Assembly: GCA_001784175.1 (NCBI GenBank)
Contig: MFPR01000027.1
Coordinates: 579 to 45,150, forward strand
Source of the DNA: Candidatus Lindowbacteria bacterium RIFCSPLOWO2_12_FULL_62_27
Lineage (GTDB): Bacteria; Lindowbacteria; 2-12-FULL-62-27
Direction: 5' to 3'
DNA length: 44,572 bases
Shown here: piece by piece, positions 1-10,897 of the stretch
How the letters are laid out: the number at the start of each line of letters is the position of its first letter
Position numbering within the stretch: the first letter of the stretch is position 1
Made by a program: the position numbers and the translations under genes
Notes under the pieces: model-generated
What the model was told of the DNA's origin: nothing
Seen by the model: only the letters and a program-made list of their open reading frames with translations
The model's database searches: none

Positions 1-582
1 CGTCGCCGTGCCGCTACTGCGGCACGGACGACGCCGAGAGAGACGACGGCGGGAATTCGGGCGGAATGCGGCGTACCGACAGCTGTTTATCTGCTGGCAA
101 GCGGCTCCTGGGATAGCCCCTCCGAAAGTTGTTTTGCGCTCGCCATGAATCTCCACCGGCGTGGGCGAGCGCTTCAATGAGGACCCGTATTTCGTTCCCG
201 GAATCGCACTCGCTGGGCGACCGATTTCGTCCTGCGGCAATTTTTGCCGCAGGGCGACGGCCGCCGAAAAAGCGCTGACGTTGCCTTCACGATCACGGGT
301 TCGCACATTGCCCCTGCCGCCGCGGTTGATCGGGAAGCACAGACGTGGGCGGGTTCGTCCCGGCCGCCGGAGGCGGGCGGGACGAGTGCCGCCGGCGATC
401 GCGTGTTGCGGAGGGAATGGGCACGGGGCAGCGGGATGTGGATGCGGCACGGAATATGCGCTCGTGCGGCACCACGTGTGTCTGCGGCGCATAATCGTAT
501 TCTTTGATCGTTTTTGGTTTCGGATCAAACTACATACGTTCGATACTCATCAATTGGTTACGGACTAAAAATCTTTTTTGCT

Positions 583-611
583 TGACTTTTTAAAATAAAA
601 GTCGATAATCC
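583..611 (+). promoter_or_regulatory. sigma70-like promoter (TTGACT -17 nt- GATAAT/ATAATC) in an AT-rich island
   Basis: TTGACT at 583-588, 17-nt AT-rich spacer, ATAAT at 606-610. The segment is locally AT-rich in a 65% GC context and sits upstream of the small ORF at 660. Confidence 0.45.
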
Positions 612-659
612 GAACAAAAGCAGCGGGCGTTGCCCGCAAAATGTTTTGGGGAGACAACT

Positions 660-848
660 ATGGTTCGAGTAACCCTGAGAGAAAGTCTTAAATCCAATCA
701 GCAACCATTATGCCTATGGGCCGCGATGTGCTCACGGACGGGGATTTATTTGCCCAGTGAGACAACCGTCAACCATATATCGCAGGCGGCCTTTAATAGT
801 GCTGATAGGAATCTCATAGACGCTCTCGGGAATAGGGTGCATACATGA
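660..848 (+). CDS. small hypothetical protein (62 aa); longer alternative start at ATG 630
   Basis: RBS GGGGAGA lies 5 nt upstream of ATG 660. The ORF sits between the predicted promoter and the intrinsic terminator. No recognizable domain. Confidence 0.3.
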   Translation: MVRVTLRESLKSNQQPLCLWAAMCSRTGIYLPSETTVNHISQAAFNSADRNLIDALGNRVHT

Positions 849-882
849 TCTAGTCGATCCAAGCGTATATTCGAACGCAAAA

Positions 883-924
883 CCCCGAGAGCCTTTCAAA
901 GGCTTTCGGGGTTTTTTGTTTTTT
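883..924 (+). terminator. Rho-independent terminator
   Basis: 11-bp GC-rich stem (ccccgagagcc / ggctttcgggg) with a 7-nt loop, followed by TTTTTTGTTTTTT. Confidence 0.65.
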
Positions 925-984
925 CTGGGGGTTTCGACATAGATCAGTTCTTTGACAAGTGAATACGGTGTTGTTTTTTCGTTT

Positions 985-1057
985 TGGAGAGTCGTCCAAA
1001 GGTAGGACCGCAGATTCTGGATCTGCGTATGCAGGTTCGATTCCTGCCTCTCCAGCC
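985..1057 (+). tRNA. tRNA-Gln(CTG), CCA encoded
   Basis: 7-bp acceptor tggagag/ctctcca. D stem gtcc/ggac. Anticodon stem gcaga/tctgc with loop ttCTGga. T arm gcagg-TTCGATT-cctgc. Discriminator G, then CCA. Confidence 0.8.
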
Positions 1058-1080
1058 AATTTTGTTTCGGGCAGTTTGGT

Positions 1081-1152
1081 GTGGTCGGAGCATGGCGGTC
1101 TGTGCGGCCGGTTGTGGCCCGGCATGCCTGGGTTCGACTCCCAGCGATCACC
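1081..1152 (+). tRNA. tRNA-His(GTG)
   Basis: Acceptor gtggtcg/cgatcac (one G-U). D stem gcat/gtgc with a GG loop. Anticodon stem gccgg/ccggc, loop ttGTGgc. T arm ctggg-TTCGACT-cccag. No G-1 or CCA encoded. Confidence 0.65.
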
Positions 1153-1167
1153 CCCGACTGCCTGGAT

Positions 1168-1252
1168 GGGCGTGTGGCAGAGCGGCGATTGCACCTGACT
1201 GTAGATCAGGCGGGCCTCTGGCCCTTCGGTGGTTCGAGTCCATCCACGCCCA
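1168..1252 (+). tRNA. tRNA-Tyr(GTA), class II
   Basis: Acceptor gggcgtg/cacgccc. 3-bp D stem. Anticodon stem cctga/tcagg, loop ctGTAga. Long variable arm. T arm ggtgg-TTCGAGT-ccatc. Confidence 0.8.
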
Positions 1253-1257
1253 TTTTT

Positions 1258-1331
1258 CCCGGTCGGAAGGAGATGGTCTCCTTGCCGCTCTCATAAGGCG
1301 GACATTCCGGGCTCGATACCCGGGGCCGGGA
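1258..1331 (+). tRNA. tRNA-Met(CAT), elongator or Ile2-type. Non-canonical T-loop CTCGATA.
   Basis: Acceptor cccggtc/ggccggg. D stem aagg/cctt. Anticodon stem ccgct/ggcgg, loop ctCATaa. T stem ccggg/cccgg. Confidence 0.6.
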
Positions 1332-1359
1332 CAAATTCTCAAGAAGGAGGTCGGAGAAA

Positions 1360-1587
1360 ATGGAGACGTACGTTTTGAAGTACACGGTGCGGTTCGTGAC
1401 GATTGACGATCCCACGGCGCGTCAGACTACTCAGCGGATTTTGACGACAGTTGGGGAATGTCTGAAAGACACACTCTCCGACCTGCCCTTGGTGGCGGAC
1501 ACGTTGGAGACGGAGGCGCGGTGTGTTCGTCACGGAGATCGGACTAACCGCGATATTCTGACTGGAAAATCTTCCGCATCAACATAA
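1360..1587 (+). CDS. hypothetical small protein (75 aa) inside the tRNA array
   Basis: Consensus RBS AAGGAGG at 1344-1350, 9 nt upstream of ATG 1360. The 228-nt ORF lies between tRNA-Met and the next tRNA-like gene. No recognizable domain. Confidence 0.35.
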   Translation: METYVLKYTVRFVTIDDPTARQTTQRILTTVGECLKDTLSDLPLVADTLETEARCVRHGDRTNRDILTGKSSAST

Positions 1588-1588
1588 C

Positions 1589-1667
1589 TGCGGAGGGGAG
1601 GTGGACGGCGGAGCCGTCTTCGAGGGCCCATAACCCTCTTAAGCCGGTGCGACTCCGGCCTCCGCTA
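1589..1667 (+). tRNA. tRNA-like, anticodon CAT, initiator-like features. About 79 nt with an expanded D region; possibly a pseudo or atypical tRNA.
   Basis: Acceptor gcggag/ctccgc with an unpaired 1:72. Anticodon stem gaggg/ccctc carries three consecutive G-C pairs, as in initiator tRNA. Loop ccCATaa. T stem gccgg/ccggc with loop TGCGACT. An extra 5-bp hairpin gacgg-cggag-ccgtc sits in the D region. Confidence 0.35.
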
Positions 1668-1668
1668 T

Positions 1669-1753
1669 GGACTCGTCGCCTAATTGGAATGGCCCCAGAC
1701 TCTTAATCTGGCGGGCGTTACGCCCATTGGGAGTTCGAGTCTCCCCGGGTCCA
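1669..1753 (+). tRNA. class II-shaped tRNA with anticodon CTT (Lys-type)
   Basis: Acceptor ggactcg/cgggtcc. 3-bp D stem gcc/ggc. Anticodon stem ccaga/tctgg, loop ctCTTaa. 17-nt extra arm forms hairpin gggcg-tta-cgccc. T arm gggag-TTCGAGT-ctccc. Discriminator A. Confidence 0.55.
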
Positions 1754-1760
1754 TTTGTAT

Positions 1761-1843
1761 TCCGAGGTCGCCTAATTGGTCGGGCAGCGCACTGTTAATG
1801 CGCCGCGGATTTCGCACTGTGGGTTCGAATCCCACCCTCGGAG
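1761..1843 (+). tRNA. class II-shaped tRNA with anticodon GTT (Asn-type)
   Basis: Acceptor tccgagg/cctcgga. 3-bp D stem gcc/ggc. Anticodon stem gcgca/tgcgc, loop ctGTTaa. 15-nt extra arm (gcg-gattt-cgc). T arm gtggg-TTCGAAT-cccac. Discriminator G. Confidence 0.55.
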
Positions 1844-1909
1844 TTTTTTCAAACGGTTTGAAGGAGGTGATGGAATTGAAATCGGACAAAGACGGTAAAG
1901 GGTAGTGAT

Positions 1910-1982
1910 GGGCTTGTAACTCAATTGGCTGAGTACCGGACTTTTAATCCGGGAGATGTGGGTTCGAGTCCCACCGGGCCCA
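1910..1982 (+). tRNA. tRNA-Lys(TTT)
   Basis: Acceptor gggcttg/cgggccc. D stem actc/gagt. Anticodon stem ccgga/tccgg, loop ctTTTaa. T arm gtggg-TTCGAGT-cccac. Confidence 0.85.
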
Positions 1983-1988
1983 AGATAC

Positions 1989-2073
1989 GGCGCAGTGGTG
2001 GAACTGGGATACACGCGAGTCTCAGAAACTCGTGCTCTATTCGAGCGTGAGAGTTCGAATCTCTCCTGCGCCA
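1989..2073 (+). tRNA. tRNA-Leu(CAG), class II
   Basis: Acceptor ggcgcag/ctgcgcc. 3-bp D stem. Anticodon stem cgagt/actcg, loop ctCAGaa. Extra arm gctc-tatt-cgagc. T arm gagag-TTCGAAT-ctctc. Discriminator A. Confidence 0.85.
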
Positions 2074-2078
2074 TTTTT

Positions 2079-2152
2079 GCGGCATTCGTATAGGGGCAAT
2101 ACATCACGTTGCCAACGTGAAGACACGAGTTCAATTCTCGTATGCCGCTCCA
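2079..2152 (+). tRNA. tRNA-Gly(GCC), CCA encoded
   Basis: Acceptor gcggcat/atgccgc. D stem gtat/atac. Anticodon stem tcacg/cgtga, loop ttGCCaa. T arm acgag-TTCAATT-ctcgt. Discriminator T, then CCA. Confidence 0.85.
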
Positions 2153-2155
2153 AGT

Positions 2156-2390
2156 GGAGGGTGAATCGATCGGGGATCGGCGCTGTGTGCTACACAGTTG
2201 GTCCGCCATGCGCGGATAGGGGTCGGCCGTTCGCGACATCCGTGTCGCTCGGCGGCACTTCCTCCGTCCATGGAGGTCGGGACCTTCGCCCTCCGTTACG
2301 GAGAGTCAACCTCGCAGGGCGAGGCACTGGTTTGAAACCAGAGGGTCCGCGAAAGTGGATGAGGATCGAGACCTCGGCTCTCCGCAAGAT
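2156..2390 (+). ncRNA. structured RNA-like element A (unassigned family). Domain 1 spans 2156-2294 and domain 2 spans 2299-2384.
   Basis: Not a tRNA. A 6-7 bp closing helix ggaggg(t)/(g)ccctcc encloses domain 1, which holds a 64-nt core nearly identical to element B. A second domain is closed by (c)ggagag/ctctcc(g). Internal hairpins tccgc-N5-gcgga and cctcc-gtccat-ggagg. Compensatory changes relative to paralog B. Confidence 0.4.
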
Positions 2391-2463
2391 GCGGGCGTGG
2401 TGTTCAACAGCAGCATGACAGTCTTCCAAACTGTCGGTGCCGGTGCAATTCCGGTCGCCCGCT
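2391..2463 (+). tRNA. tRNA-Gly(TCC)-like. Weak D arm, non-canonical T-loop TGCAATT.
   Basis: Acceptor gcgggcg/cgcccgc. Anticodon stem acagt/actgt, loop ctTCCaa. T stem gccgg/ccggt. The D loop lacks GG. Confidence 0.5.
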
Positions 2464-2469
2464 CAAAAC

Positions 2470-2543
2470 AGCCTCGTCGTCCAACTGGACAGGACACCTC
2501 TTTGCGAAGGAGGAGATTGCGCGTTCAAGTCGCGCCGAGGCTA
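2470..2543 (+). tRNA. tRNA-Arg(GCG)-like, atypical D arm
   Basis: Acceptor agcctcg/cgaggct. Anticodon stem cctct/ggagg, loop ttGCGaa. T arm gcgcg-TTCAAGT-cgcgc. The D region is one nucleotide too long with a short loop. Confidence 0.45.
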
Positions 2544-2545
2544 TA

Positions 2546-2780
2546 GGGAAGGTGAACCTCGCGGGCGGGGCGCTGTTTGGAAGACAGTCGGTCCGCTTAA
2601 AGCGGATGCGGGTCGGCCGTTCGCGACATCCCTGTCGCTCTGCGGCACTTCCTCCGTCCATGGAGGTCGGGACCGCCGCCTTCCGTTGTGGAGAGTGAAA
2701 CCGGGAAGCCCGATCGCCGTTCCGAAGACGGATGGCCCCGCCATGCGGGGTGGGGTGCGATACCTCCGCTCTCCGAAATA
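2546..2780 (+). ncRNA. structured RNA-like element B, paralog of A. Domain 1 spans 2547-2684 and domain 2 spans 2689-2775.
   Basis: Closing helix ggaagg(t)/(g)ccttcc. The 4th pair is A-U here versus G-C in element A. The 64-nt core at 2611-2674 is about 97% identical to 2221-2284. Hairpin tccgc-ttaaa-gcgga has the same stem as in A with a different loop. Second domain closed by (t)ggagag/ctctcc(g). Confidence 0.4.
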
Positions 2781-2851
2781 GGCCGGTAGTATCAACAGTA
2801 GAACGTCGGTCTCCAAAACCGAAGGTCTCGGGGCAGAACCGAGCCGGCCTG
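2780..2851 (+). tRNA. tRNA-Trp(CCA)-like. Poor D stem, non-canonical T-loop GGCAGAA.
   Basis: Acceptor aggccgg/ccggcct. Anticodon stem tcggt/accga, loop ctCCAaa. T stem ctcgg/ccgag. Confidence 0.45.
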
Positions 2852-2903
2852 TGACTGAAAGGAATCCCCGAGGTACTCGCCCGAAGGGCGGGTCGGGGAC
2901 CAT

Positions 2904-2976
2904 GGGCACTGAGCAGGCGTAGTCGTTGCGTCCGGCTGAAGACCGGAAGAGCGTGGTGCGATCCCACGAGTGCCCA
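2904..2976 (+). tRNA. tRNA-Phe(GAA). T-loop TGCGATC.
   Basis: Acceptor gggcact/agtgccc. D stem gcag/ttgc. Anticodon stem tccgg/ccgga, loop ctGAAga. T stem cgtgg/ccacg. Discriminator A. Confidence 0.7.
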
Positions 2977-2979
2977 CTT

Positions 2980-3049
2980 CGCGGCGAGCAGAGAAGCTCT
3001 GGGATGGTCTGCAAAACCATCAAAGTCGGGGCGGTACCGACCGCCGTGT
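2980..3049 (+). tRNA. tRNA-Cys(GCA)-like. Short D loop, non-canonical T-loop GGCGGTA.
   Basis: Acceptor cgcggcg/cgccgtg (one G-U). D hairpin cagag-aagc-ctctg. Anticodon stem atggt/accat, loop ctGCAaa. T stem gtcgg/ccgac. Confidence 0.45.
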
Positions 3050-3052
3050 CAC

Positions 3053-3123
3053 GCCCGATTAGGTCAGTGGCAGACCAACCGTCTTGTAAGCGGTGAACGT
3101 CGGCTCGATTCCGACATCGGGCT
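3053..3123 (+). tRNA. tRNA-Thr(TGT). T-loop CTCGATT.
   Basis: Acceptor gcccgat/atcgggc. D stem ggtc/gacc with a GG loop. Anticodon stem accgt/gcggt, loop ctTGTaa. T stem gtcgg/ccgac. Confidence 0.75.
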
Positions 3124-3130
3124 TACCTGC

Positions 3131-3203
3131 GCCCTCCTAATTCAATTGGACAGAAACGGGAGTTTCTACCTCTCGGATGCGTGTTCGAGTCACGCGGAGG
3201 GCA
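3131..3203 (+). tRNA. tRNA-Arg(TCT)
   Basis: Acceptor gccctcc/ggagggc. D loop contains GG. Anticodon stem gggag/ctctc, loop ttTCTac. T arm gcgtg-TTCGAGT-cacgc. Confidence 0.8.
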
Positions 3204-3209
3204 ATTCTC

Positions 3210-3280
3210 GCCGCCATAGTTCAGTGGCAGAACAGAAAACTCGTAATTTTCAGACCTGCGTTCGATTCGCAGTGGCGGCT
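3210..3280 (+). tRNA. tRNA-Thr(CGT)
   Basis: Acceptor gccgcca/tggcggc. D stem gttc/gaac. Anticodon stem gaaaa/ttttc, loop ctCGTaa. T arm ctgcg-TTCGATT-cgcag. Confidence 0.85.
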
Positions 3281-3284
3281 TTTC

Positions 3285-3356
3285 GGGGGCGTAGTGAGAA
3301 CGATAACACGGCTGGTCTGCACCCAGCAGATGAGAGTTTGAATCTCTCCGCCTCCA
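3285..3356 (+). tRNA. tRNA-Ala(TGC) with the G3:U70 identity pair
   Basis: Acceptor gggggcg/cgcctcc with G3-U70. Anticodon stem gctgg/ccagc, loop tcTGCac. T arm gagag-TTTGAAT-ctctc. Discriminator A. Confidence 0.75.
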
Positions 3357-3361
3357 CTTTT

Positions 3362-3447
3362 CGGCGTGTGGCTGAACGGTAAAAGCGCCGTCCTGATAAG
3401 GCGGTGGGCTGAAGTAGTCCGCGTGCGTTCGACTCGCACCGCGCCGA
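3362..3447 (+). tRNA. class II-shaped tRNA with anticodon GAT (Ile-type)
   Basis: Acceptor cggcgtg/cgcgccg. 3-bp D stem gct/agc with a GG loop. Anticodon stem ccgtc/ggcgg, loop ctGATaa. 18-nt extra arm (gggc-tgaagta-gtcc). T arm gtgcg-TTCGACT-cgcac. Discriminator A. Confidence 0.55.
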
Positions 3448-3455
3448 GCATTTAC

Positions 3456-3548
3456 CCACGGGTAGCATAGCGGCCAATGCAGCAGGCCTATAACCTGCGT
3501 TAGCTCCGGACTGGGGCGAGATCGTGGGTTCGAGTCCCACCCCGTGGA
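3456..3548 (+). tRNA. class II-shaped tRNA with anticodon TAT (AUA-reading or Ile2-type). Very long extra arm of about 25 nt.
   Basis: Acceptor ccacggg/cccgtgg. D stem gcat/atgc with a GG loop. Anticodon stem gcagg/cctgc, loop ccTATaa. T arm gtggg-TTCGAGT-cccac. Discriminator A. Confidence 0.45.
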
Positions 3549-3569
3549 TTTGATGTGTGAGGTACATAC

Positions 3570-3644
3570 GGCTCGGTGGTGTAGCAGCCTGCACACGGCT
3601 CTGTCACAGCCGAGGTACGAGGGCAGCACTCGTCCGAGCCGCCA
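3570..3644 (+). tRNA. tRNA-Asp(GTC), CCA encoded. Non-canonical T-loop GGCAGCA.
   Basis: Acceptor ggctcgg/ccgagcc. Anticodon stem cggct/agccg, loop ctGTCac. T stem acgag/ctcgt. Discriminator G, then CCA. Confidence 0.6.
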
Positions 3645-3645
3645 T

Positions 3646-3721
3646 CAGGGAATGGGATAATCTGGTAGTCCGCCGCACTTGGGACGCGGTCGTCCGAGTT
3701 CAAATCTCGGTTCCCTGACCA
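3646..3721 (+). tRNA. tRNA-Pro(TGG), CCA encoded
   Basis: Acceptor cagggaa/ttccctg. D stem ggat/gtcc with a GG loop. Anticodon loop ctTGGga. T arm ccgag-TTCAAAT-ctcgg. Discriminator A, then CCA. Confidence 0.75.
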
Positions 3722-3733
3722 AACTTCAAGTAC

Positions 3734-3808
3734 GGGCGCGTGGTCCAGCAGCGAAGACATCAGTCCTACAAACTGAAAACCTCGGTGCAAGTCCGAGCGT
3801 GCCCACCA
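3734..3808 (+). tRNA. tRNA-Val(TAC), CCA encoded. T-loop TGCAAGT.
   Basis: Acceptor gggcgcg/cgtgccc. Anticodon stem tcagt/actga, loop ccTACaa. T stem ctcgg/ccgag. Discriminator A, then CCA. Confidence 0.7.
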
Positions 3809-3865
3809 AATCTGACCGACCGGATGGAGGAAATGTCGCGGGCGCCAGGGATGGCGCAGGAGCGA

Positions 3866-3942
3866 CCTCTCGTCGCCCAATTGGAAAAGGCACCGATTTC
3901 CTAAATCGGGGACTGCGCGTTCGAATCGCGCCGAGAGGCCCA
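3866..3942 (+). tRNA. tRNA-Arg(CCT), CCA encoded
   Basis: Acceptor cctctcg/cgagagg. D stem gcc/ggc with a GG loop. Anticodon stem ccgat/atcgg, loop ttCCTaa. T arm gcgcg-TTCGAAT-cgcgc. Discriminator C, then CCA. Confidence 0.8.
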
Positions 3943-3955
3943 GTAAGACCAATGA

Positions 3956-4028
3956 CCGCTCGTAGTGAAACTGGATATCACGCGACGCTTCGAACGTCGT
4001 AATGAGGGTTCGAATCCTTCCGAGCGGA
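3956..4028 (+). tRNA. tRNA-Arg(TCG)
   Basis: Acceptor ccgctcg/cgagcgg. D stem gtga/tcac with a GG loop. Anticodon stem cgacg/cgtcg, loop ctTCGaa. T arm gaggg-TTCGAAT-ccttc. Confidence 0.85.
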
Positions 4029-4033
4029 TTTGT

Positions 4034-4116
4034 GGCGATGTGGCGGAACGGAATACGCGGCTGTTTCAAGAACAGTTGATCGTAAGATCGTGAGAGTTCG
4101 ACTCTCTCCATCGCCA
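4034..4116 (+). tRNA. tRNA-Leu(CAA), class II
   Basis: Acceptor ggcgatg/catcgcc. 3-bp D stem. Anticodon stem gctgt/acagt, loop ttCAAga. Extra arm gatcg-taa-gatcg. T arm gagag-TTCGACT-ctctc. Discriminator A. Confidence 0.8.
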
Positions 4117-4121
4117 ATTTT

Positions 4122-4205
4122 GCGGGCGTGGCGGAATGGGATACGCGGCGGATTTAAGACCCGCTGGGGCAGAGCCCCGTGCAGGTTCAAGTCCTGTCAC
4201 CCGCA
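4122..4205 (+). tRNA. tRNA-Leu(TAA), class II
   Basis: Acceptor gcgggcg/cacccgc (one mismatch). 3-bp D stem. Anticodon loop ttTAAga. Extra arm ggggc-aga-gcccc. T arm gcagg-TTCAAGT-cctgt. Discriminator A. Confidence 0.7.
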
Positions 4206-4208
4206 TTC

Positions 4209-4295
4209 GGCCGAGTGGTGGAACTGGAATACACGCGCGGTTGAGGTCCTCGTGGACGAAAGTAGTCCTTGCGAGTTCGAGTCTCGCCTCGGCCA
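4209..4295 (+). tRNA. tRNA-Leu(GAG), class II
   Basis: Acceptor ggccgag/ctcggcc. 3-bp D stem. Anticodon loop ttGAGgt. Extra arm ggac-gaaagta-gtcc. T arm gcgag-TTCGAGT-ctcgc. Discriminator A. Confidence 0.75.
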
Positions 4296-4300
4296 GTTTT

Positions 4301-4373
4301 GGGGCGGTAGGCGAATGGTAGAGCCGCCGGCCTTTCAAGCCGGAGTCTGTGGGTTCAAGTCCCATCCGCCCTG
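4301..4373 (+). tRNA. tRNA-Glu(TTC)
   Basis: Acceptor ggggcgg/ccgccct (G1-U72). D stem ggc/gcc. Anticodon stem ccggc/gccgg, loop ctTTCaa. T arm gtggg-TTCAAGT-cccat. Discriminator G. Confidence 0.8.
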
Positions 4374-4377
4374 TTGT

Positions 4378-4450
4378 GGGGGTATCGGCTAATCGGCAGG
4401 CCGCCGTGTTCTCAGCGCGGAAACCGCGGGTTCGAATCCCCGTACCCCTG
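4378..4450 (+). tRNA. tRNA-Glu(CTC)-like. Imperfect T stem.
   Basis: Acceptor gggggta/tacccct. D stem ggct/ggcc. Anticodon stem ccgtg/cgcgg, loop ttCTCag. Only 3 of 5 T-stem pairs form around TTCGAAT. Discriminator G. Confidence 0.45.
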
Positions 4451-4455
4451 GTCAT

Positions 4456-4530
4456 TGGGGAGTCGTCTAATAGGTAGGACGCGAGACTTTGGATCTCGCT
4501 ATGCAGGATCGAAGCCTGCCTCCCCAGCCA
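4456..4530 (+). tRNA. tRNA-Gln(TTG), CCA encoded. Non-canonical T-loop ATCGAAG.
   Basis: Acceptor tggggag/ctcccca. Same architecture as the first Gln. Anticodon stem cgaga/tctcg, loop ctTTGga. Discriminator G, then CCA. Confidence 0.7.
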
Positions 4531-4645
4531 TTTTCGAACAAATACGAACGTTGGCGCGGGCACGCCAGCGGCGCACAGGTGACCAAGTATCTTGGATTTC
4601 ATTTGTGCGTTCCGCCAATGGATTCTAAACGTGCCCGGAGCCAGA

Positions 4646-4718
4646 CGTTGGTTAGCTCAGCAGGCAGAGCATCAGGCTGTGAACCTGAGAGTCGCGGGTT
4701 CGAATCCCGCACCAACTT
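4646..4718 (+). tRNA. tRNA-His(GTG)-like, second copy. 1:72 mismatch.
   Basis: Acceptor cgttggt/accaact with C1 unpaired against T72. D stem gctc/gagc with a GG loop. Anticodon stem tcagg/cctga, loop ctGTGaa. T arm gcggg-TTCGAAT-cccgc. Confidence 0.55.
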
Positions 4719-5070
4719 CGGGTGGAAACACCCGCCAGTGGAAAACCGCGCAAGCGGGCTCAGAACGCGTCCGATGGAGACGAACGCTCGATCAACTGGC
4801 CGACGCGCGGATAATGGCCGCACCGGAAGTACGCGCCGGCGTCTGTCGGAGGCAACACAAATACGCCGCCCTGCAGCTCGCAGATACCGCATCGCCGACC
4901 GTGGCAACCTCCGACGGATTTCATACTCGTCGGAAAACCCATGCGAGCGATGCTCAAGCGACGCTCCGCGGATGATGTGCAGTTGGACTTGCCGTTCGTC
5001 TCCTGAGGGCCTTATTTCAACACATATCGAGAAAGGCGAAATCAAAAATCAGAAAGGGAGGTGAATCGCC

Positions 5071-6177
5071 ATGTTCTTGATTGGATACCGGAAGATTCGT
5101 TCCTACGAGAGGGGCCTGTACTTCTACGATGGGGAGTTCCGGAAAATTCTGGCCACAGGCCGACATTGGTTCGTGGATCCTCTGAACCGCATCCGGATCG
5201 ATGTTGTGTCCCAGCGCGACCCCTGGCTGGACCATGACAAGCTCGACATCATCGTCAAGTCCGGTGTCCTCAAGGACGAGGCGGTGGTACTGGACCTGAA
5301 GGACTATGAGCGCGCGCTCGTGTGGATCGACGGCCGGTTCAGCCGCGTGCTGGATGCAGGTCTCTACGCGATGTGGTCCAAGTTCCGCGACATCAAGACG
5401 GAGATCGTTGACGCGCGGGCCGTGCTGTTCGAGCACAAGAGCATCGACGTCATCCTGAAGTCGGGGGGTGTCGATGCAGTGCTCAATGTCTTCAACGTCG
5501 AGGAGGGTCACGCCGGCGTCTATTTCAAGGACGGTGAATACGTCAAGACACTGGCTCCGGGCAAGTATGCGACGTGGAAGAACGTCGGCAAGGTCAAGTT
5601 CTACCACCTCGACGTGCGCGAGACGGTACTCGACGTGGCCGGCCAGGAGATCATGACGGCCGACAAGGTCACGCTCCGGATGAACGCGATCGTGACCTAT
5701 CGCATCGTTGATGCCCGCAAGTCCGTCGAAACGGTCGGAGACGTGGCGCAGGCGCTGTATCGTGAGGCGCAGCTGGCGCTTCGTGCCGCAGTCGGCACAC
5801 GAGAGCTTGAGCCGCTTCTGGTCGACAAGACCGACGTTGCGAAGGAACTCGAGTCCGTCATTCGCCGACGCGCGAGCGAGTTCGGCATTCACGTGATCGG
5901 TCTTGGCATTCGAGACATCATCCTGCCGGGCGACATGAAGACGTTGCTCAACAAGGTGCTCGAGGCCAAGAAGGCGTCCGAGGCGAACGTGATTCTGCGA
6001 CGCGAGGAGACGGCAGCCATGCGCAGCCAGCTCAACACGGCGAAGCTCATGGAGGACAATGCGGTTCTGATGCGCCTCAAGGAACTGGAGGTGCTGGAGA
6101 AGGTCGCGGGCGCGTCTAAGCTGAGCGTCGTGCTGGGTGAGAAGGGATTGGCCGAGCGTGTGGTCAATCTGCTGTGA
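5071..6177 (+). CDS. SPFH/band-7 (stomatin/prohibitin-like) domain protein with three N-terminal ~35-aa repeats
   Basis: RBS GGGAGGTGA lies 6 nt before the ATG. A 368-aa ORF. Its C-terminal half has SPFH-like composition (TADKVTLRMNAIVTYRI...GIRDIILPGDM...coiled-coil tail). The N-terminus has three tandem ~35-aa repeats. Confidence 0.8.
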   Translation: MFLIGYRKIRSYERGLYFYDGEFRKILATGRHWFVDPLNRIRIDVVSQRDPWLDHDKLDIIVKSGVLKDEAVVLDLKDYERALVWIDGRFSRVLDAGLYAMWSKFRDIKTEIVDARAVLFEHKSIDVILKSGGVDAVLNVFNVEEGHAGVYFKDGEYVKTLAPGKYATWKNVGKVKFYHLDVRETVLDVAGQEIMTADKVTLRMNAIVTYRIVDARKSVETVGDVAQALYREAQLALRAAVGTRELEPLLVDKTDVAKELESVIRRRASEFGIHVIGLGIRDIILPGDMKTLLNKVLEAKKASEANVILRREETAAMRSQLNTAKLMEDNAVLMRLKELEVLEKVAGASKLSVVLGEKGLAERVVNLL

Positions 6178-6389
6178 GCAGTAAGGAGGAACGATGTTTA
6201 CGGTAGACGAGTTTGAAAGCGGCGGAGGGGGGCCGGATCAAAAACGCAGCGGCGGCCCCCCTCCTTGGAGCCGGGTGATCCGAACAAACAGGCAACACCG
6301 TATTCAACGCCCGCATGGTGTGAGTGGCAGCACGTCGCCGGGGTAAGGCGGAGGTCTCGGATCAAAACCGAGTGCGGGCTTGATCAATT

Positions 6390-7061
6390 ATGTTCAGGAG
6401 GAATGATGTGACTGGTGTACTGGTTCAACCAACGTTGCTTTTGAATTCCAGTTTTCTGCCGGTGTCGGTCATCCGTGTGATGGAGGCAATCTGTCTGCTC
6501 GTTACTTCCAAAGCCGATCTAATAGACGGTGACGAGAGGGAACCGATCCGTTCGCAAAGATTGTCGATCCCTCTGCCGAGGGTCGTACGCCTGTTGAATT
6601 TCAACGGGATTCCGTCGAACCCGGCCTGGTCAAGATTGAAGGTGATTTACCGGGACGACATGACCTGCGCCTGGTGCGGCAAGCGCGGCCGTATGGAGGA
6701 ACTGGACTGCGACCACATCATTCCCCGATCACGGTGGCACGTTTGTCCGCCGAATCTTCGCCGAGCATACGAAGTTCCACGAGTGAAACTCCAGAACATT
6801 GCAGCCCCTTGGAATTCGTGGATGAACACCCTCGCGGCCTGTCGAAAATGCAACGCCGCCAAGGGAAATCTCTATCCATGGGAGATGGGCCACCGCCCCC
6901 TCTGGTCGCCGTACGAGCCGGAATACGTCCCATCCATCATTGTCAGCTTCGAGCGAGCAAAAAATCTTGGCTGGCTGGATTATCTGCTCACGCGCCGCGG
7001 GACGCTCGTCTATCCGTCGGGAGTGCGTGCCGTGGGTGTGCCCTCCAGAAAACGGATATAG
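6390..7061 (+). CDS. HNH endonuclease family protein
   Basis: RBS AGGAGGAATG precedes the ATG. HNH motif CAWCGK...DHIIP...N...CRKCNAAKG (CxxC...H...N...CxxC). Confidence 0.75.
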   Translation: MFRRNDVTGVLVQPTLLLNSSFLPVSVIRVMEAICLLVTSKADLIDGDEREPIRSQRLSIPLPRVVRLLNFNGIPSNPAWSRLKVIYRDDMTCAWCGKRGRMEELDCDHIIPRSRWHVCPPNLRRAYEVPRVKLQNIAAPWNSWMNTLAACRKCNAAKGNLYPWEMGHRPLWSPYEPEYVPSIIVSFERAKNLGWLDYLLTRRGTLVYPSGVRAVGVPSRKRI

Positions 7062-7154: not shown

Positions 7155-7433
7155 GTGACGGTTCCAGAAACAGAATCGAACGAGGCACAGAAAACCGAAG
7201 AAATCTGTAAGCGTAAACCCGGGATTCCGGACGTGCCCATTCCATCTGGCCCGTACCTGAATTCTGTAGAAGCCGCCTGTTATTTGCGCTTGTCGCTCGG
7301 CACAATCGCCAACCTTGTATCCGAGGGGAAGATTCCTTTTGCAAAAGCGGGCCGCCGGCGCGTCTTCCGTAGGACCGACCTCGATGAATATGTCGAGAAG
7401 TCGTACAAGCCGGCAGTCCACAACTCGTTTTAG
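7155..7433 (+). CDS. excisionase/Xis-like helix-turn-helix DNA-binding protein
   Basis: GTG start with a GGGGGTGG RBS. The C-terminal segment SVEAACYLRLSLGTIANLVSEGKIPFAKAGRRRVFRRTDLDEYV resembles the excisionase-family (MerR-like) HTH. Confidence 0.55.
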   Translation: MTVPETESNEAQKTEEICKRKPGIPDVPIPSGPYLNSVEAACYLRLSLGTIANLVSEGKIPFAKAGRRRVFRRTDLDEYVEKSYKPAVHNSF

Positions 7434-8324: not shown

Positions 8325-9095
8325 CTATTGTGGAACCGACGGCGGGGATGGCCTCAAGATCAGATGTCGAGCTTCGAGTTCGACTTTCGCATCCGGATAG
8401 ACTGCGAGTACCCGGATGAGATTTTCACGCAACGCGCGTTTAAAAAAGCGCAGCCGGGAATAATCGGCTCCAAACTGACAGAACAGGGCACATAGGGGAA
8501 TAGCCGTTGCGGTACGGAGATAACTGAAGCGGTAGGTGAGCCAGGCATAGAGATCGATCGCCAGAGATGAGCGTTTCAAGGTGCAGATGGCATCCGGTCG
8601 CAATGGAATCGACGATTGCACCGCATGAAGATAAAACTCCGCCGTTACGCGGATCTCTGTTTGAAAGAGGGATCGTTCATACGGTCGCTTGGGGTCCCAC
8701 CAGAGTTCAAACTCCACGGCGACTCTCATTTGCTCGATCACGCCGGACATTCGACCGAATGCGATGGTTGACGCCAGAAGCCGGCTGACTTGGTCGTAGA
8801 ATCGCCGGCGCGTGTGGCCGTCCGGACTCAAGCCAAGCCCTGCTAGAAACGAATGGTAGGACTCGTCGAGTTCTATTCGCCGTTGCCCTGTGATCAAAAT
8901 CTGCCTGGTGAGCCACATGAGAAACAGCCGGGGGTAACTCGCGTAGGGCAGACCCAGATTCGGGTTGGCCCGAACATTGAGGACATAGTCATTGGCGCGG
9001 CGGGTCCAGATGGTTTCACCGGCGCGGTCGGAATGGGGGAGGTTCGCCACAACGAAGGACTTCGGAAGATAGACGGGGTTGGTCTTGGCATTCAT
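8325..9095 (-). CDS. hypothetical protein, possibly a plasmid/ICE-type replication initiator (weak call)
   Basis: 256-aa ORF flanked by iteron-like repeats and TCCACA/TGTGGA motifs. It is divergent from the HTH regulator and integrase genes. The functional guess rests on context only. Confidence 0.45.
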   Translation of the reverse strand: MNAKTNPVYLPKSFVVANLPHSDRAGETIWTRRANDYVLNVRANPNLGLPYASYPRLFLMWLTRQILITGQRRIELDESYHSFLAGLGLSPDGHTRRRFYDQVSRLLASTIAFGRMSGVIEQMRVAVEFELWWDPKRPYERSLFQTEIRVTAEFYLHAVQSSIPLRPDAICTLKRSSLAIDLYAWLTYRFSYLRTATAIPLCALFCQFGADYSRLRFFKRALRENLIRVLAVYPDAKVELEARHLILRPSPPSVPQ

Positions 9096-9681: not shown

Positions 9682-10788
9682 ATGGGCGTTCGAGCGATCA
9701 CGCGATTACCGAGTGGCGAATATCGCGTCAATTTCTATTACTGGAATCAGATCGGCATGAAGCATCGCGGGCGGAAGAAATTCCGTACGCTGCGGCTTGC
9801 AGAGACGTTCTATGCCGAGAGGATTCGTGAATTTGAAGCGAAGGTGCATGTTGGCTCGAAGGAGCGAGGGTCGATCACGGTGAAGCAATTCCTGGACCAG
9901 CATTATTATCCATGGGCGCAGAAGGCCAAGAAATCTTATCCCGTGGAAAGAGTGTTCATGAGGAATACCGAAGTGCGATGGGGCGAACGCCGACTCTCGT
10001 CAATCACTGTGTTTGATATTGAAAAGTGGCGGATTGAAATGAAGCAGAAGGTCTGCCCGGCGACCGTCAGCCGCCGACTGGCGTATCTTCGGTCCTTCTT
10101 CAAATTCGCGCATGCCGGCATGACGGACGAGGATGGCCACACGGTCGGCGGCGGATTCATCGGCGACAATCCGATGCGGCATGTTCGAAGCCCGAAAACG
10201 AAGCTGCCTCTTCGACCGCCGACGATTCTGGCGCCGGATGAAATTGCGAGGCTCAAGCCCGATGGGACGCGCGGGATGGATCTCGTTTTATTCTGCATTT
10301 ATTCGGGGATGCGCCGGGGCGAGATATTCCGGATGCGGTACGAGGACATAGATCGCGTGGCCGGCGTCATCCGGATCCCCGTCACGAAAAACGACGAGCC
10401 GCGGATCATTCCGTTGACGAAACAGCTTGCCGGTATTATTGACAGACAACCGGTGGACGATTCGGGATTTGTTTTTTCATGGAAGGGAAGGCAAACTAGG
10501 GACTGTCGTAGCGCGATCAATCAGGCGCTCTGGCGCGTGGGGATCACACGGCGGGTCCGGATGCATGACCTTCGCCACACGTTCGGCTCGTACCTGGCCA
10601 TGAACGGGGTAGACTTGGACGAAAGGATGGCTCTGATGGGGCACAAGACAATCACAGCGGCGCGGATTTATACCCATTATTATACGAAACGCCTGTCGGA
10701 GTCGATGGAGAGGCTGATGGAGGCCTATGAGACGGCCGAGGAGAAAACAAAAGGGCACAAAAAGGGCACTGAGGCGATTGCCGTATGA
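9682..10788 (+). CDS. int: tyrosine-type site-specific recombinase / phage integrase
   Basis: C-terminal catalytic motifs: R...HDLRHTFGSYLAMNGVDLDERMALMGHKTITAARIYTHY (HxxR...Y). 368 aa. Lies immediately upstream of tRNA-Thr(CGT). Confidence 0.9.
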   Translation: MGVRAITRLPSGEYRVNFYYWNQIGMKHRGRKKFRTLRLAETFYAERIREFEAKVHVGSKERGSITVKQFLDQHYYPWAQKAKKSYPVERVFMRNTEVRWGERRLSSITVFDIEKWRIEMKQKVCPATVSRRLAYLRSFFKFAHAGMTDEDGHTVGGGFIGDNPMRHVRSPKTKLPLRPPTILAPDEIARLKPDGTRGMDLVLFCIYSGMRRGEIFRMRYEDIDRVAGVIRIPVTKNDEPRIIPLTKQLAGIIDRQPVDDSGFVFSWKGRQTRDCRSAINQALWRVGITRRVRMHDLRHTFGSYLAMNGVDLDERMALMGHKTITAARIYTHYYTKRLSESMERLMEAYETAEEKTKGHKKGTEAIAV

Positions 10789-10824: not shown

Positions 10825-10897
10825 GCCAACGTAGCTCAGACGGTAGAGCAACGCACTCGTAATGCGTAGGTCGGCGGTTCGATTCCGCCCGTTGGCT
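10825..10897 (+). tRNA. tRNA-Thr(CGT)
   Basis: Acceptor gccaacg/cgttggc. D stem gctc/gagc with loop AGACGGTA. Anticodon stem acgca/tgcgt, loop ctCGTaa. T arm ggcgg-TTCGATT-ccgcc. Discriminator T. Confidence 0.85.

Follow-up and report, generated by a model that had tools for sequence, protein, structure and literature searches.

Several described systems come close to the locus reported here. Allo-tRNAs, presented together with (8/4) tRNA-Ser and tRNA-His (Mukai et al. 2017, PMC5389517), are defined by an 8/4 or 9/3 structure and a Sec-like D arm, and UAU is among their commonest anticodons. The nematode nev-tRNAs (Hamashima et al. 2012, PMC3333845) are eukaryotic nuclear species derived from tRNA-Leu; they retain the Leu determinants, accept no amino acid but Leu and are expressed at a low level. 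tRNA arrays, defined as at least 20 tRNA genes at a density of at least two per kb on an integrative element, were surveyed by Tran et al. (2016, PMC4758250); in that survey, we came across no extra-armed class I isotypes. Finally, there are phage tRNAs that escape anticodon nucleases (T5 tRNA-Lys versus PARIS, 10.1101/2024.01.02.573894; van den Berg et al. 2023, PMC10264068), Lys being a favourite target of these enzymes.

The window, that is the whole stretch of 44,572 nucleotides analysed, carries on its forward strand a tRNA array (985-4719) of about 37 genes for all 20 amino acids, as determined by ARAGORN, Rfam and folding, with a 75-codon ORF inside it (1360-1587). The count comprises 28 genes called by ARAGORN at default settings, 5 at relaxed settings, Trp found by Rfam, and Ser-CGA, Cys and Asp found by folding. 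The array is part of a 6.6-kb cargo cassette (492-7061), which also includes a slipin gene (5071-6177), a tRNA-Thr GGU (6309-6380) and, at its end, an HNH endonuclease gene (6390-7061), the proteins being assigned by Pfam and PHROGs matches. The cassette is absent from another genome, L424, where about 70 bp occupy the site and the flanks are 92-93% identical to the window element. The carrier is a plasmid-like element integrated at tRNA-Thr in the Candidatus Lindowbacteria chromosome. Its tyrosine integrase (9682-10788, forward strand) adjoins the host tRNA-Thr(CGU) (10825-10897; ARAGORN, Rfam 73 bits) and RepA_C (8325-9095, reverse strand) lies upstream of the integrase, both proteins being identified from Pfam and gene tables.

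Four extra-armed genes of the array, all on the forward strand, are real tRNA genes. Rfam RF00005 (gathering score 29) matches the CUU (Lys) gene at 1669-1753 with 51.5 bits, the GUU (Asn) gene at 1761-1843 with 55.1, the GAU (Ile) gene at 3362-3447 with 53.8 and the UAU (Ile, AUA) gene at 3456-3548 with 54.0. An earlier reading of the DNA, made from the sequence only, had given exactly these ends. ARAGORN calls Lys(ctt) at 1668-1754, Asn(gtt) at 1760-1844, Ile(gat) at 3361-3449 and Ile(tat) at 3456-3548. The unconstrained minimum free energy (MFE) structure of each gene is a five-armed cloverleaf with a 7-bp acceptor and a 5-bp T stem, in agreement with the 7/5 stems noted before. The anticodon triplet lies within an open 7-nt loop in the CUU, GUU and UAU genes, while the anticodon loop of the GAU gene is partly closed in the MFE. 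Variable regions measure 17, 15, 18 and 25 nt (CUU, GUU, GAU and UAU genes, respectively), matching the reported range of 15-25 nt, and contain hairpins of 4-5, 3, 5-6 and 5-7 bp; the discriminators A, G, A and A also agree. The D loops of 8-10 nt are ordinary and the D stems have 3-4 bp. A 3-bp D stem, attributed earlier to all four, is correct for the CUU and GAU genes but not for GUU (3 bp plus a U.G pair) or UAU (4 bp). Nor are all anticodon loops fully canonical as had been described, since that of the UAU gene reads C-C-U-A-U-A-A, with C33 instead of the U33 that is near-universal in tRNAs.

Asn and Ile are represented in the array by long-arm genes only: as the sequence-only reading had stated, no class I Asn and no class I Ile (GAU/UAU) gene occurs within it. 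Its statement that Ser tRNAs are missing is true at default thresholds only. Relaxed ARAGORN adds Ser GCU (2161-2250), Ser UGA (2300-2385), Ser GGA (2546-2640) and two Met CAU genes. The Ser(UGA) gene (forward strand, called at -ps90) is of the 8/4 type as defined in PMC5389517, its MFE showing an 8-bp acceptor, a 4-bp T stem, a 6-bp D stem with a 3-nt D loop and a variable arm of 6 bp that ends in a GAAA cap, with G73. A candidate Ser(CGA) gene, also of the 8/4 type (about 2690-2775, forward strand), was called by no tRNA finder; in its MFE the acceptor has 8 bp, the T stem is short and the variable arm has 6 bp, and the assignment is tentative because position 33 is C. Many array neighbours are structurally irregular and missed by standard finders, so some members may not work in translation. 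Across four relatives, the proportion of variable sites is lowest in stems (4.7%), higher in loops (7.4%) and highest in spacers (10.3%). Cognate discriminators are found throughout the 20-amino-acid set, and within this array family an anticodon has been switched on a fixed tRNA body (GTG in the window versus GTA in L409).

The relatives of the array used for comparison include L407, L409, L412 and L421. An anticodon-blind classifier with a cross-validated accuracy of 69% ranked Lys first for the CUU gene, Asn for the GUU gene and Ile for the GAU gene. The variable region of the GUU gene is composed of 1 unpaired nt, a 3-bp stem, a 5-nt loop and 3 unpaired nt. This gene carries U1-A72 and G73, as ordinary Asn tRNAs do, without the G2-C71/A3-U70 Ser signature, and its identity pattern is that of 89 phage long-arm Asn genes. 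Judged from these bases, it cannot, by the known rules, be a Leu or Tyr substrate. It is kept in L407, L412 and L421 with changes in loops only, and its D arm has the string TCGCCTAATTGG in common with the CUU gene. In the latter, 1 unpaired nt, a 4-5 bp stem, a loop and 3 unpaired nt make up the variable region, the five-arm MFE has a z of -2.2, and differences from a Hainich relative are confined to loops. Two features count against cognate decoding by the CUU gene, namely the Ser-like start of its acceptor (G1-C72, G2-C71, A3-U70) and, in the L412/L421 homologue, the disruption of the anticodon loop, which is replaced by 14 nt.

The GAU gene is a hybrid. Its core is Leu-like (G9, G13.A22 and G26, with an arm that matches the Leu-GAG arm at 72% identity) and is combined with the Ile determinants C4-G69, U12-A23, A37 and A38 of the bacterial Ile identity set (PMC9976931). 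Within the array it is closest to the four Leu genes (identity 0.63-0.65), an observation that counts against cognate charging; three of these four carry G37, where the GAU gene has A37. The anticodon is one base away from GAG, and the classifier puts Ile ahead of Leu by only 0.6 log units. Given the resemblance of the core to the array Leu genes, charging with Leu is conceivable for this gene. In L409, compensatory changes have altered the arm stem, the remaining tRNA being identical, and CCA directly follows A73.

The sequence of the UAU gene, with its 4-bp D stem, A9, and a variable arm looped by GGACU, is identical in L409, L412 and L421. Along its whole length it reaches 68.3 bits with model R1, for which 36 phage long-arm Ile-UAU genes were used and the window gene was left out. 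The core of phage long-arm Ile-UAU genes is Ile-like, the commonest 12-23 pair being U12-A23 (38) and A9 being present in 58 of 71, whereas phage Leu genes have G12-C23 (118/122) and G9 (119/121). All four pairs of the family's arm helix have changed on both sides, with 93% of cells paired, and the arm bears a conserved, anticodon-like loop containing GAU. The D loop of the window gene contains AGCGGCCAA, a string that we presume to be that of bacterial tRNA-Tyr. Counting against cognate decoding by the UAU gene are C33, a classifier result in which Tyr, Lys, Leu and Met lead and Ile is not in the top four, and the poor use of this anticodon by IleRS, the E. coli enzyme charging UAU 360-fold worse than LAU (PMC3575796).

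The sequence-only reading held that such an arm is restricted to Leu, Ser, Tyr and Sec tRNAs. This fails for phage and mobile-element tRNA genes, as hundreds of unrelated phage contigs, and cultured phages too, carry genes of the same long-arm design. In pattern scans of IMG/VR contigs, at least 76 Asn, at least 52 Lys-CUU and at least 80 Ile-UAU long-arm genes were found. When counted in loci not selected for the anticodon concerned, the long form accounts for 17/26 Ile-UAU, 28/132 Lys-UUU, 16/91 Thr-UGU and 13/76 Asn genes, and for 0/80 Arg-UCU and 0/72 Ala genes. In most phage loci, the single Asn gene of the fetched stretch is a long-arm gene (at least 76 of 92 Asn genes, 81 loci). The window genes and their phage counterparts belong to a structural type of tRNA that is widespread in phages and mobile elements, has a variable-region hairpin and covers certain codons starting with A (anticodons Ile UAU, Lys UUU/CUU, Thr UGU and Asn GUU, rarely Ile GAU). 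We found a description of this type in no paper, and it is apparently undescribed.

Long-arm Asn genes resemble class I Asn genes in G73 (82/89 vs 74/77) and U1-A72 (64/89 vs 53/77). The acceptor signature of Ser genes (G2-C71 in 141/147, A3-U70 in 128/147) is as a rule absent from them (G2-C71 in 34/89). Arm geometry is also distinct: stems measure 5-7 bp in Ser arms but 3-4 bp in long-arm Asn and Lys arms, the 3′ side has 1 unpaired nt in the former and 3-4 in the latter, and GNRA loops occur in 36/47 Asn and 27/30 Lys arms. The window CUU and GUU genes, with 3 unpaired nt 3′ of the arm, are unlike Ser in this respect. Hairpin propensity exceeds that of shuffles (means 3.5 vs 2.9 and 3.4 vs 2.6). 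The extra helix is shown to be under selection.

We favour, with a probability of roughly 60%, the reading that the four genes function as elongator tRNAs within a complete mobile set, charged according to their anticodons and decoding in the standard way. The earlier proposal of unusual Asn, Ile and Lys isoacceptors is the better supported of the two that had been made, except that they would belong to a mobile cassette and recur in phages rather than characterize this lineage. A polycistronic transcript would be cut by RNase P and 3′ processing, and CCA would be added where it is not encoded. Host enzymes reading anticodon and discriminator (AsnRS, LysRS and IleRS) would then charge the tRNAs, with a non-discriminating AspRS plus GatCAB as an alternative to AsnRS for the Asn tRNA, and AAC/U, AAG, AUC/U and AUA would therefore keep their standard meaning. 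The extra arm does not appear to be a Ser/Leu identity mark here. Our preferred conjecture is that it alters the tRNA body at the contacts of tRNA-targeting toxins, defence nucleases or modification enzymes; in the UAU type, it may add a recognition handle instead.

The other earlier proposal, of allo-tRNA-like species charged with Ser or Leu and recoding ANN codons, lacks support in that form, on several counts. With their 7/5 stems and ordinary D loops, the genes depart from the 8/4 or 9/3 form with its Sec-like D arm; the acceptor end of the Asn gene and the arm geometry are not those of Ser; and the argument from missing Ser tRNAs falls with the Ser-anticodon genes found. Host and element genes follow the standard code, the invariant Asn and Ile residues of host FtsZ being encoded by AAC, AUC and AUA. 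Leucylation (or, for the UAU gene, tyrosylation) of at least one of the A73 species, Ile-GAU, Ile-UAU and Lys-CUU, is conceivable because bacterial LeuRS ignores the anticodon: Leu identity resides in A73, tertiary interactions, A20a and the large variable region and involves no element of the anticodon (PMC9976931 Table 1). Leu would in that case be placed by the cassette's tRNAs at codons for Ile or Lys. The clustering of the GAU gene with the Leu genes and its narrow classifier gap fit such missense decoding, as do the Tyr-, Lys- and Leu-led ranking and the D-loop string of the UAU gene, the weakness of wild-type IleRS on UAU and the anticodon switch within the array family; leucylated nematode class II tRNAs with a UAU anticodon offer a precedent (PMC3333845). 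We nevertheless consider it unlikely. Under a standard code, mischarging would mean proteome-wide mistranslation, and the array would otherwise be without an Ile tRNA for AUC/AUU. Moreover, the GAU gene has the Ile determinants listed above, including U12-A23 in place of the Leu pair, the UAU gene comes from a phage family whose core is Ile-like, and the Asn gene is unfit for either enzyme.

Less probable again is that some or all of the four do not decode, being decaying copies, or else tRNA-shaped RNAs that act as regulators, as substrates of RNA repair, or as decoys or sensors of toxins that target tRNA. This would suit the irregular neighbours, C33 and the 14-nt anticodon loop in L412/L421. 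The slipin gene and the tRNA preceding it show, furthermore, homology to the leading part of tRNA-slipin-rtcA-rtcB operons under rtcR control, and charged but untranslated irregular tRNAs have been found in polycistrons (PMC5389517). However, stems are more constrained than loops and spacers, the extra helix shows compensatory changes, the set is complete with cognate discriminators, and a long-arm gene is the sole Asn gene in most fetched phage stretches. A Sec-like 8/5 structure, in which the discriminator would pair with the base preceding position 1 and the acceptor branch would reach 13 bp, is very improbable. ARAGORN does draw an 8-bp acceptor for the CUU, GUU and GAU genes (T-A, T.G and T-A), but such a pair is expected by chance because the upstream spacers are T-rich. 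The ends lie at 7 bp according to Rfam as well as the MFE, an extra pair of this kind is missing from the UAU gene, no D arm resembles that of tRNA-Sec, and the CCA of the L409 GAU gene directly follows the discriminator.

The four genes share several traits with the systems described above and differ from them in others. Like allo-tRNAs, they combine a long variable arm with non-Leu/Ser/Tyr anticodons in a bacterial or phage setting and are clustered with irregular tRNAs, the Ser-UGA and Ser-CGA genes being themselves 8/4; unlike them, they have 7/5 stems, D stems of 3-4 bp and D loops of 8-10 nt, are without the Ser identity set and keep acceptor and discriminator features of their anticodon's amino acid. 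With nev-tRNAs they share the 7/5 class II shape and class I anticodons including Ile UAU, and the GAU gene looks tRNA-Leu-related. In contrast, a Leu-like character is absent from the Asn, Lys and Ile-UAU genes, and the complete set has no Asn or Ile genes other than the long-arm ones. As in the nuclease-escape phage tRNAs, mobile copies have a body unlike that of the host, although the escape changes documented there map to the anticodon stem-loop (10.1101/2024.01.02.573894; PMC10264068). In cultured phages, Aeromonas phage 44RR2.8t (NC_005135) has an annotated 86-nt tRNA-Asn(GUU) with a short variable hairpin, and Lactobacillus phage 3-521 (NC_048753) a 91-nt tRNA-Ile(UAU) with arm loop GGACA, compared with GGACU in the window, and an HNH gene beside its tRNA cluster. 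Both records name these genes as plain tRNAs without remark, and their identity to the window genes is too low for BLAST. The two phages are virulent, whereas the window cassette sits in a plasmid-like element that is integrated into the chromosome of a groundwater bacterium. In that respect the locus agrees with the mobile-element tRNA arrays (PMC4758250), whose definition covers it and whose redundancy to the host set it shares.

The 30 tRNA genes predicted by ARAGORN in the window include Lys(ctt) at 1668-1754, Asn(gtt) at 1760-1844, Ile(gat) at 3361-3449 and Ile(tat) at 3456-3548, four genes of 85-93 nt each. The Rfam tRNA model, with a gathering score of 29, matched them with 51.5, 55.1, 53.8 and 54.0 bits, respectively, at exactly the coordinates proposed in the sequence-only reading (1669-1753, 1761-1843, 3362-3447 and 3456-3548). 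These scores rule out chance or artefact as the source of the four genes. Free folding produced a five-armed cloverleaf in each case with an acceptor stem of 7 bp and a T stem of 5 bp (7/5), in agreement with the shape first assigned to them. Fold z-scores were -2.2, -2.0, -1.1 and -2.0 for CUU, GUU, GAU and UAU, variable regions measured 17, 15, 18 and 25 nt, and discriminators were A, G, A and A, in the same order. The expected triplet lies in an open 7-nt loop in three genes, and the minimum free energy (MFE) structure of the GAU gene partly closes the anticodon loop. Two details of the initial description stood only in part: the anticodon loops are canonical except in the UAU gene, which carries C33 instead of U33, and a strict 3-bp D stem was found in two of the four genes.

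The array carrying these genes (985-4719) includes 28 genes by default ARAGORN and about 37 in total, within 3.7 kb. It qualifies as a tRNA array unit under the definition of Tran et al. 2016 (PMC4758250), which asks for a minimum of 20 tRNA genes and a density of 2 per kb or higher. Relaxed ARAGORN thresholds revealed two CAU genes (Met/Ile2-type, 1258-1332 and 1594-1667), Ser GCU (2161-2250), Ser UGA (2300-2385) and Ser GGA (2546-2640). Rfam added a Trp gene (2780-2851), and folding a Cys-GCA cloverleaf with U73 (2980-3049), an Asp-GUC with G73 (3570-3642) and a Ser-CGA candidate (around 2690-2775). The array thus covers all 20 amino acids, with Asn and Ile served by extra-armed genes only, and the earlier statement that it lacks a Ser tRNA does not hold. 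Ser-UGA and, tentatively, Ser-CGA escape both default ARAGORN and Rfam; in their folds, an acceptor stem of 8 bp is combined with a T stem of 4 bp, the D stem and the variable arm are both long, and the discriminator is G73. They thus have the (8/4) tRNA-Ser form known from phage tRNA clusters (Mukai et al. 2017, PMC5389517), so that the true allo-type tRNAs of the array are its Ser genes, with Ser anticodons, and not the four long-arm genes.

Other genes of the array are irregular. In the tRNA-like genes Ser GCU (about 2159-2270) and Ser GGA (about 2546-2660), a T region of about 37 nt replaces the normal T arm; the two have in common a 128-bp repeat of 85% identity (2179-2306 and 2569-2696), which extends into the start of the next gene. 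The two CAU genes, Cys-GCA and Asp-GUC have non-canonical T loops (e.g. GGCGGUA, GGCAGCA) and D loops without GG, and retain cognate discriminators where the identity rule is known. For annotation, default finders miss the Ser, Cys, Asp and Met genes of this array, so that false gaps in a tRNA set may result.

The first 10.8 kb of the window (55-59% G+C) correspond to an integrated element. From about 11.5 kb on, the sequence is ordinary chromosome (63% G+C) with genes for a 5'-nucleotidase and a thioredoxin-like protein, then ftsZ, ftsA, ftsQ, ddl, murB, murC, ftsW and further mur genes. Downstream of the array, the element carries a slipin gene (5071-6177), a tRNA-Thr GGU (6309-6380), a phage-type HNH endonuclease gene (6390-7061), an excisionase-like HTH gene, RepA_C (8325-9095) and a tyrosine integrase (9682-10788), and is directly adjoined by the host tRNA-Thr(CGU) (10825-10897). 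In a second groundwater genome, this element occupies the equivalent tRNA-Thr and is 92-93% identical, with about 70 bp (7312-7383 of locus L424) in place of window positions 492-7061. The array, slipin gene, tRNA-Thr GGU and HNH gene therefore form a 6.6-kb accessory cassette with presence/absence polymorphism, and tRNAs missing from the array say nothing about the host's own decoding set. The cassette ends at the stop codon of the HNH gene, a hint at spread with the help of the endonuclease, as has reportedly been described for the tRNA region of T4. Within 10 kb upstream, no copy of the tRNA-Thr site turned up that would mark the left end of the carrier element. The whole array gave no relevant BLAST match in the plasmid collection.

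Several features surround the array. Immediately upstream, a small ORF lies between a good sigma-70-like promoter (582-609; TTGACT, 16-nt spacer, GATAAT) and a 17-bp intrinsic terminator (879-915); for the array, no promoter matching the consensus was detected. Within the array, between the two CAU genes, is an ORF of 75 codons (1360-1587) that has a strong Shine-Dalgarno sequence; it gave no family match, and its sole homologue found (92% identical) is in an array copy from Hainich. Slipin homologues (70-75% identical) occur in rtcR-tRNA-slipin-rtcA-rtcB operons; these carry no arrays and were set aside as a lead to related ones. The last tRNA, its 350-nt leader and the slipin gene (window 4646-5075) are homologous to the head of such rtcR-controlled operons of other bacteria (9353-10005 in L011, an rtc-type operon), and the anticodon on this tRNA body varies (GTG in the window, GTA in the array relative L409, TGG in L011). 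In L011, a long near-perfect hairpin with weak matches to several microRNA precursor models is located between tRNA and slipin (9850-9940).

Four partial copies of the array, 88-98% identical, were recovered from other groundwater and sediment data sets. A scan of the genome collection with the Ile-GAU pattern returned only two loci, the source genome not among them. Variable sites amount to 10.3% in spacers, 7.4% in tRNA loops and 4.7% in tRNA stems. Changes were confined to loops in Asn-GUU of the relatives and in Lys-CUU of the Hainich copy, and Ile-UAU was identical in all copies. Ile-GAU of L409 is identical outside the extra arm, where GGGCU/AGUCC is replaced by GGGGA/UUCCC; two pairs have changed on both sides and the helix is kept. 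The Lys-CUU homologue of the relatives L412 (about 705-800) and L421 has a 14-nt anticodon loop (CTCCGGCGCAGCCG) in place of 7 nt, the rest including the extra arm being kept, and the tRNA at 4646-4719 has GTG in the window and GTA in L409 on the same body. Array-family members can therefore lose or switch anticodons.

The four tRNAs gave no relevant BLAST match in the phage collection. IMG/VR contigs were scanned for anticodon loops with a T loop downstream, spaced such that the variable region between them must be long. The Asn-GUU, Lys-CUU and Ile-UAU patterns each returned at least 120 stretches, and the Ile-GAU pattern 33, of which 8 were true long-arm Ile-GAU genes. ARAGORN on 392 loci (2633 tRNAs) detected at least 76 long-arm Asn, at least 52 Lys-CUU and at least 80 Ile-UAU genes. 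Counting for each anticodon only loci not picked for it, the long form accounted, among the matches listed, for 17/26 Ile-UAU, 28/132 Lys-UUU, 16/91 Thr-UGU, 13/76 Asn-GUU, 13/162 Met-CAU and 2/88 Ile-GAU genes, and for none of 80 Arg-UCU, 72 Ala-UGC and 58 Val-UAC. Within phage tRNA clusters, the extra-armed design is thus commonplace for a particular set of codons that begin with A. It is found in cultured phages under plain names: the T4-like Aeromonas phage 44RR2.8t carries an 86-nt tRNA-Asn(GUU) and an 84-nt tRNA-Phe, and Lactobacillus phage 3-521 a 91-nt tRNA-Ile(UAU) adjoining an HNH gene. In the literature within our coverage, which excludes most subscription journals, no paper was found that describes phage or array tRNAs for Asn, Lys or Ile with an extra arm. 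The four genes belong to an extra-armed class of mobile-element tRNAs which is present in public phage records and, as far as could be found, apparently undescribed. Phage tRNA-Leu, for its part, often lacks the long arm (long form in only 14/42 Leu-CAA and 3/11 Leu-CAG among the matches listed). Arm length in phage tRNA sets is uncoupled from the textbook classes in both directions.

The arm was analysed in an alignment of 36 phage long-arm Ile-UAU genes from which the window gene was left out. All four pairs of the extra helix (4/4) were changed on both sides and 93% of cells were paired; the whole-structure covariation score was 0.86, against 0.20 in shuffles and 0.12-0.20 with partners slid. 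The arm helix thus covaries like a structural arm and, to our knowledge, no bacterial splicing system excises 15-25 nt from a tRNA variable region; the possibility that the extra arm is an intron is therefore rejected. R1, the covariance model built from these 36 genes, matched window 3456-3548 with 68.3 bits (E 7e-15) over model positions 1-91, with a gap-free arm. The next-best window tRNA reached 50.4 bits, 18 bits lower, with the arm deleted. The window UAU gene thus belongs to the phage long-arm Ile-UAU family.

Among the matches listed, AGAU is present in the variable region of 78 of 94 non-identical family members (shuffles: mean 8.7, maximum 17), in 71 of the 78 inside the hairpin loop. 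It occurs in 0-7% of genes in the other long-arm groups (Asn, Lys, Ser, Leu, Tyr, Ile-GAU). The arm consensus reads G-C-N-C (stem), Y-A-G-A-U-U-R (7-nt loop) and G-N-G (stem). About 5 nt after it are left unpaired, as many as make up an ordinary variable loop. Eight further members carry YGAUU or YGAUA, which brings the GAU-bearing motif to 86/94 among the matches listed; two of these eight read exactly CUGAUAA, the canonical Ile anticodon loop. As judged by its size and by the GAU, the major Ile anticodon, at the anticodon place, the Ile-UAU extra arm looks like a second anticodon arm. The window gene departs from the family's AGAUU with the loop GGACU, GAC standing in GAU's place; the loop is GGACG in L304, a metagenomic phage gene, and GGACA in Lactobacillus phage 3-521. 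E. coli IleRS charges the UAU anticodon 360-fold worse than LAU (PMC3575796), which makes a role of the arm in recognition conceivable. A fuller functional proposal is that the Ile-UAU tRNA would read AUA while its arm offers GAU to a UAU-rejecting IleRS or to another enzyme, and that the GNRA-capped arm of the Asn and Lys tRNAs would shield them from tRNA-targeting defence nucleases; we regard this as a long shot. In the PARIS, PrrC and Schlafen literature, escape changes were found only in the anticodon stem-loop, with nothing on the variable region.

Which amino acid the four tRNAs carry was approached through identity elements. E. coli AsnRS recognizes the GUU anticodon and G73, and U1-A72 is typical of bacterial tRNA-Asn. 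The window GUU gene, with its GUU anticodon, U1-A72, C2-G71 and G73, conforms to bacterial tRNA-Asn identity. Among the matches listed, G73 and U1-A72 occur in 82/89 and 64/89 long-arm Asn genes of phages, respectively, and in 74/77 and 53/77 of their ordinary class-I Asn genes. The Ser acceptor signature of phages (G2-C71 in 141/147, A3-U70 in 128/147, among the matches listed) is as a rule absent from long-arm phage Asn genes. Bacterial tRNA-Ser identity was taken to comprise G73, G2-C71, A3-U70 and a long arm whose stem has 5-7 bp and leaves about 1 nt unpaired on its 3' side; none of the four genes has this set. The GUU gene shares G73 but has U1-A72, C2-G71, a 3-bp arm and 3 unpaired nt; the CUU gene shares G2-C71 and A3-U70 but leaves 3 nt unpaired and, like the GAU and UAU genes, has A73.

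Arm layouts were compared on the same lines. All groups leave 1 nt unpaired 5' of the arm. Ser arms have a 5-7 bp stem, a loop mostly of 4-6 nt (GNRA in 59/75 tetraloops) and 1 nt unpaired 3'; Leu arms 3-4 bp, mostly 4 nt and 2 nt; Tyr arms 3 bp, mostly 4-5 nt and 3 nt. Long-arm Asn, Lys and Thr genes have 3-4 bp, GNRA loops (36/47 Asn, 27/30 Lys-CUU) and 3-4 nt unpaired 3'. The window CUU and GUU arms have 4 and 3 bp, respectively, each with a 5-nt loop and 3 nt unpaired 3'. The MAFFT alignment of long-arm Asn genes was too poor at the 5' end and in the arm for pair counts, so structure-anchored statistics and shuffles were used for the Asn arm. A position-specific classifier blind to anticodon, D arm and variable region (cross-validated accuracy 69%) gave Lys as the top isotype of the CUU gene, Asn as that of the GUU gene and Ile as that of the GAU gene, where Leu followed at 0.6 log units; the leading isotypes of the UAU gene were Tyr, Lys and Leu.

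The two Ile genes are more ambiguous. The GAU gene is closest within the array to the four Leu genes, its arm being 72% identical to that of Leu-GAG, and has the Leu-type features G9, G13.A22 and G26. It carries U12-A23, where phage Leu has G12-C23 (118/122 among the matches listed). Compared with the bacterial Ile set (A73, C4-G69, U12-A23, C29-G41, G/C34, A35, U36, A37, A38; PMC9976931 Table 1), it has A73, C4-G69, U12-A23 and the whole anticodon loop, and deviates at G29-C41. The UAU gene has A73, C4-G69 and A35-A38, and deviates at U34, A12-U23, A29-U41 and C33. Among the matches listed, phage long-arm Ile-UAU genes have an Ile-like core: A9 is present in 58/71, the 12-23 pair is most often U12-A23, and positions 13 and 22 form a Watson-Crick pair. 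In the host FtsZ, invariant Asn residues are encoded by AAC and AAT, and invariant Ile residues by ATC and ATA. Taken together, identity nucleotides, arm geometry, the classifier and the host code point to charging according to the anticodon as the best reading of the four genes, one that is firm for Asn, reasonable for Lys and tentative for the two Ile genes.

In textbooks and in the identity rules of SerRS, LeuRS and TyrRS, the bacterial long variable arm is limited to three or four amino acids. The window presents a mobile tRNA set that is complete and yet has only extra-armed tRNAs for Asn and Ile, which raises the question of how the arm is accommodated by AsnRS, LysRS, IleRS, EF-Tu and the ribosome. 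One may also ask why it is selected in mobile elements, yet not for the tRNAs of most other sampled codons, and whether it serves to evade tRNA-targeting immunity or to charge an AUA-reading UAU tRNA without lysidine. The underlying pattern, above all the anticodon-like arm of the AUA-reading tRNAs, is broader and more interesting than one odd array.

The four genes were compared with two known systems. The nev-tRNAs descend from tRNA-Leu, keep Leu determinants and are charged with leucine only (Hamashima et al. 2012, PMC3333845). The four genes are like them in shape, and only the GAU gene has Leu affinity: it is nearest to Leu genes and carries G9 and G13.A22, but with U12-A23 in place of G12-C23. 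With allo-tRNAs, the four genes share a long variable region (15-25 nt) and an anticodon outside the class II set (CUU, GUU, GAU, UAU). Allo-tRNAs, however, split the 12-bp acceptor/T branch 8/4 or 9/3 and have a tRNA-Sec-like D arm with a long stem and a tetraloop (Mukai et al. 2017, PMC5389517), whereas the four genes are 7/5 by Rfam, by MFE and, after trimming of a -1:73 pair, by ARAGORN, with D stems of 3-4 bp and 8-10-nt loops containing GG, which are not Sec-like. The recoding by allo-tRNA-like species envisaged from the sequence alone is made unlikely by this 7/5 shape and by the Asn identity features of the GUU gene, and its premise of missing Ser tRNAs falls with the Ser-anticodon genes present in the array. 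The four genes are thus not allo-tRNAs.
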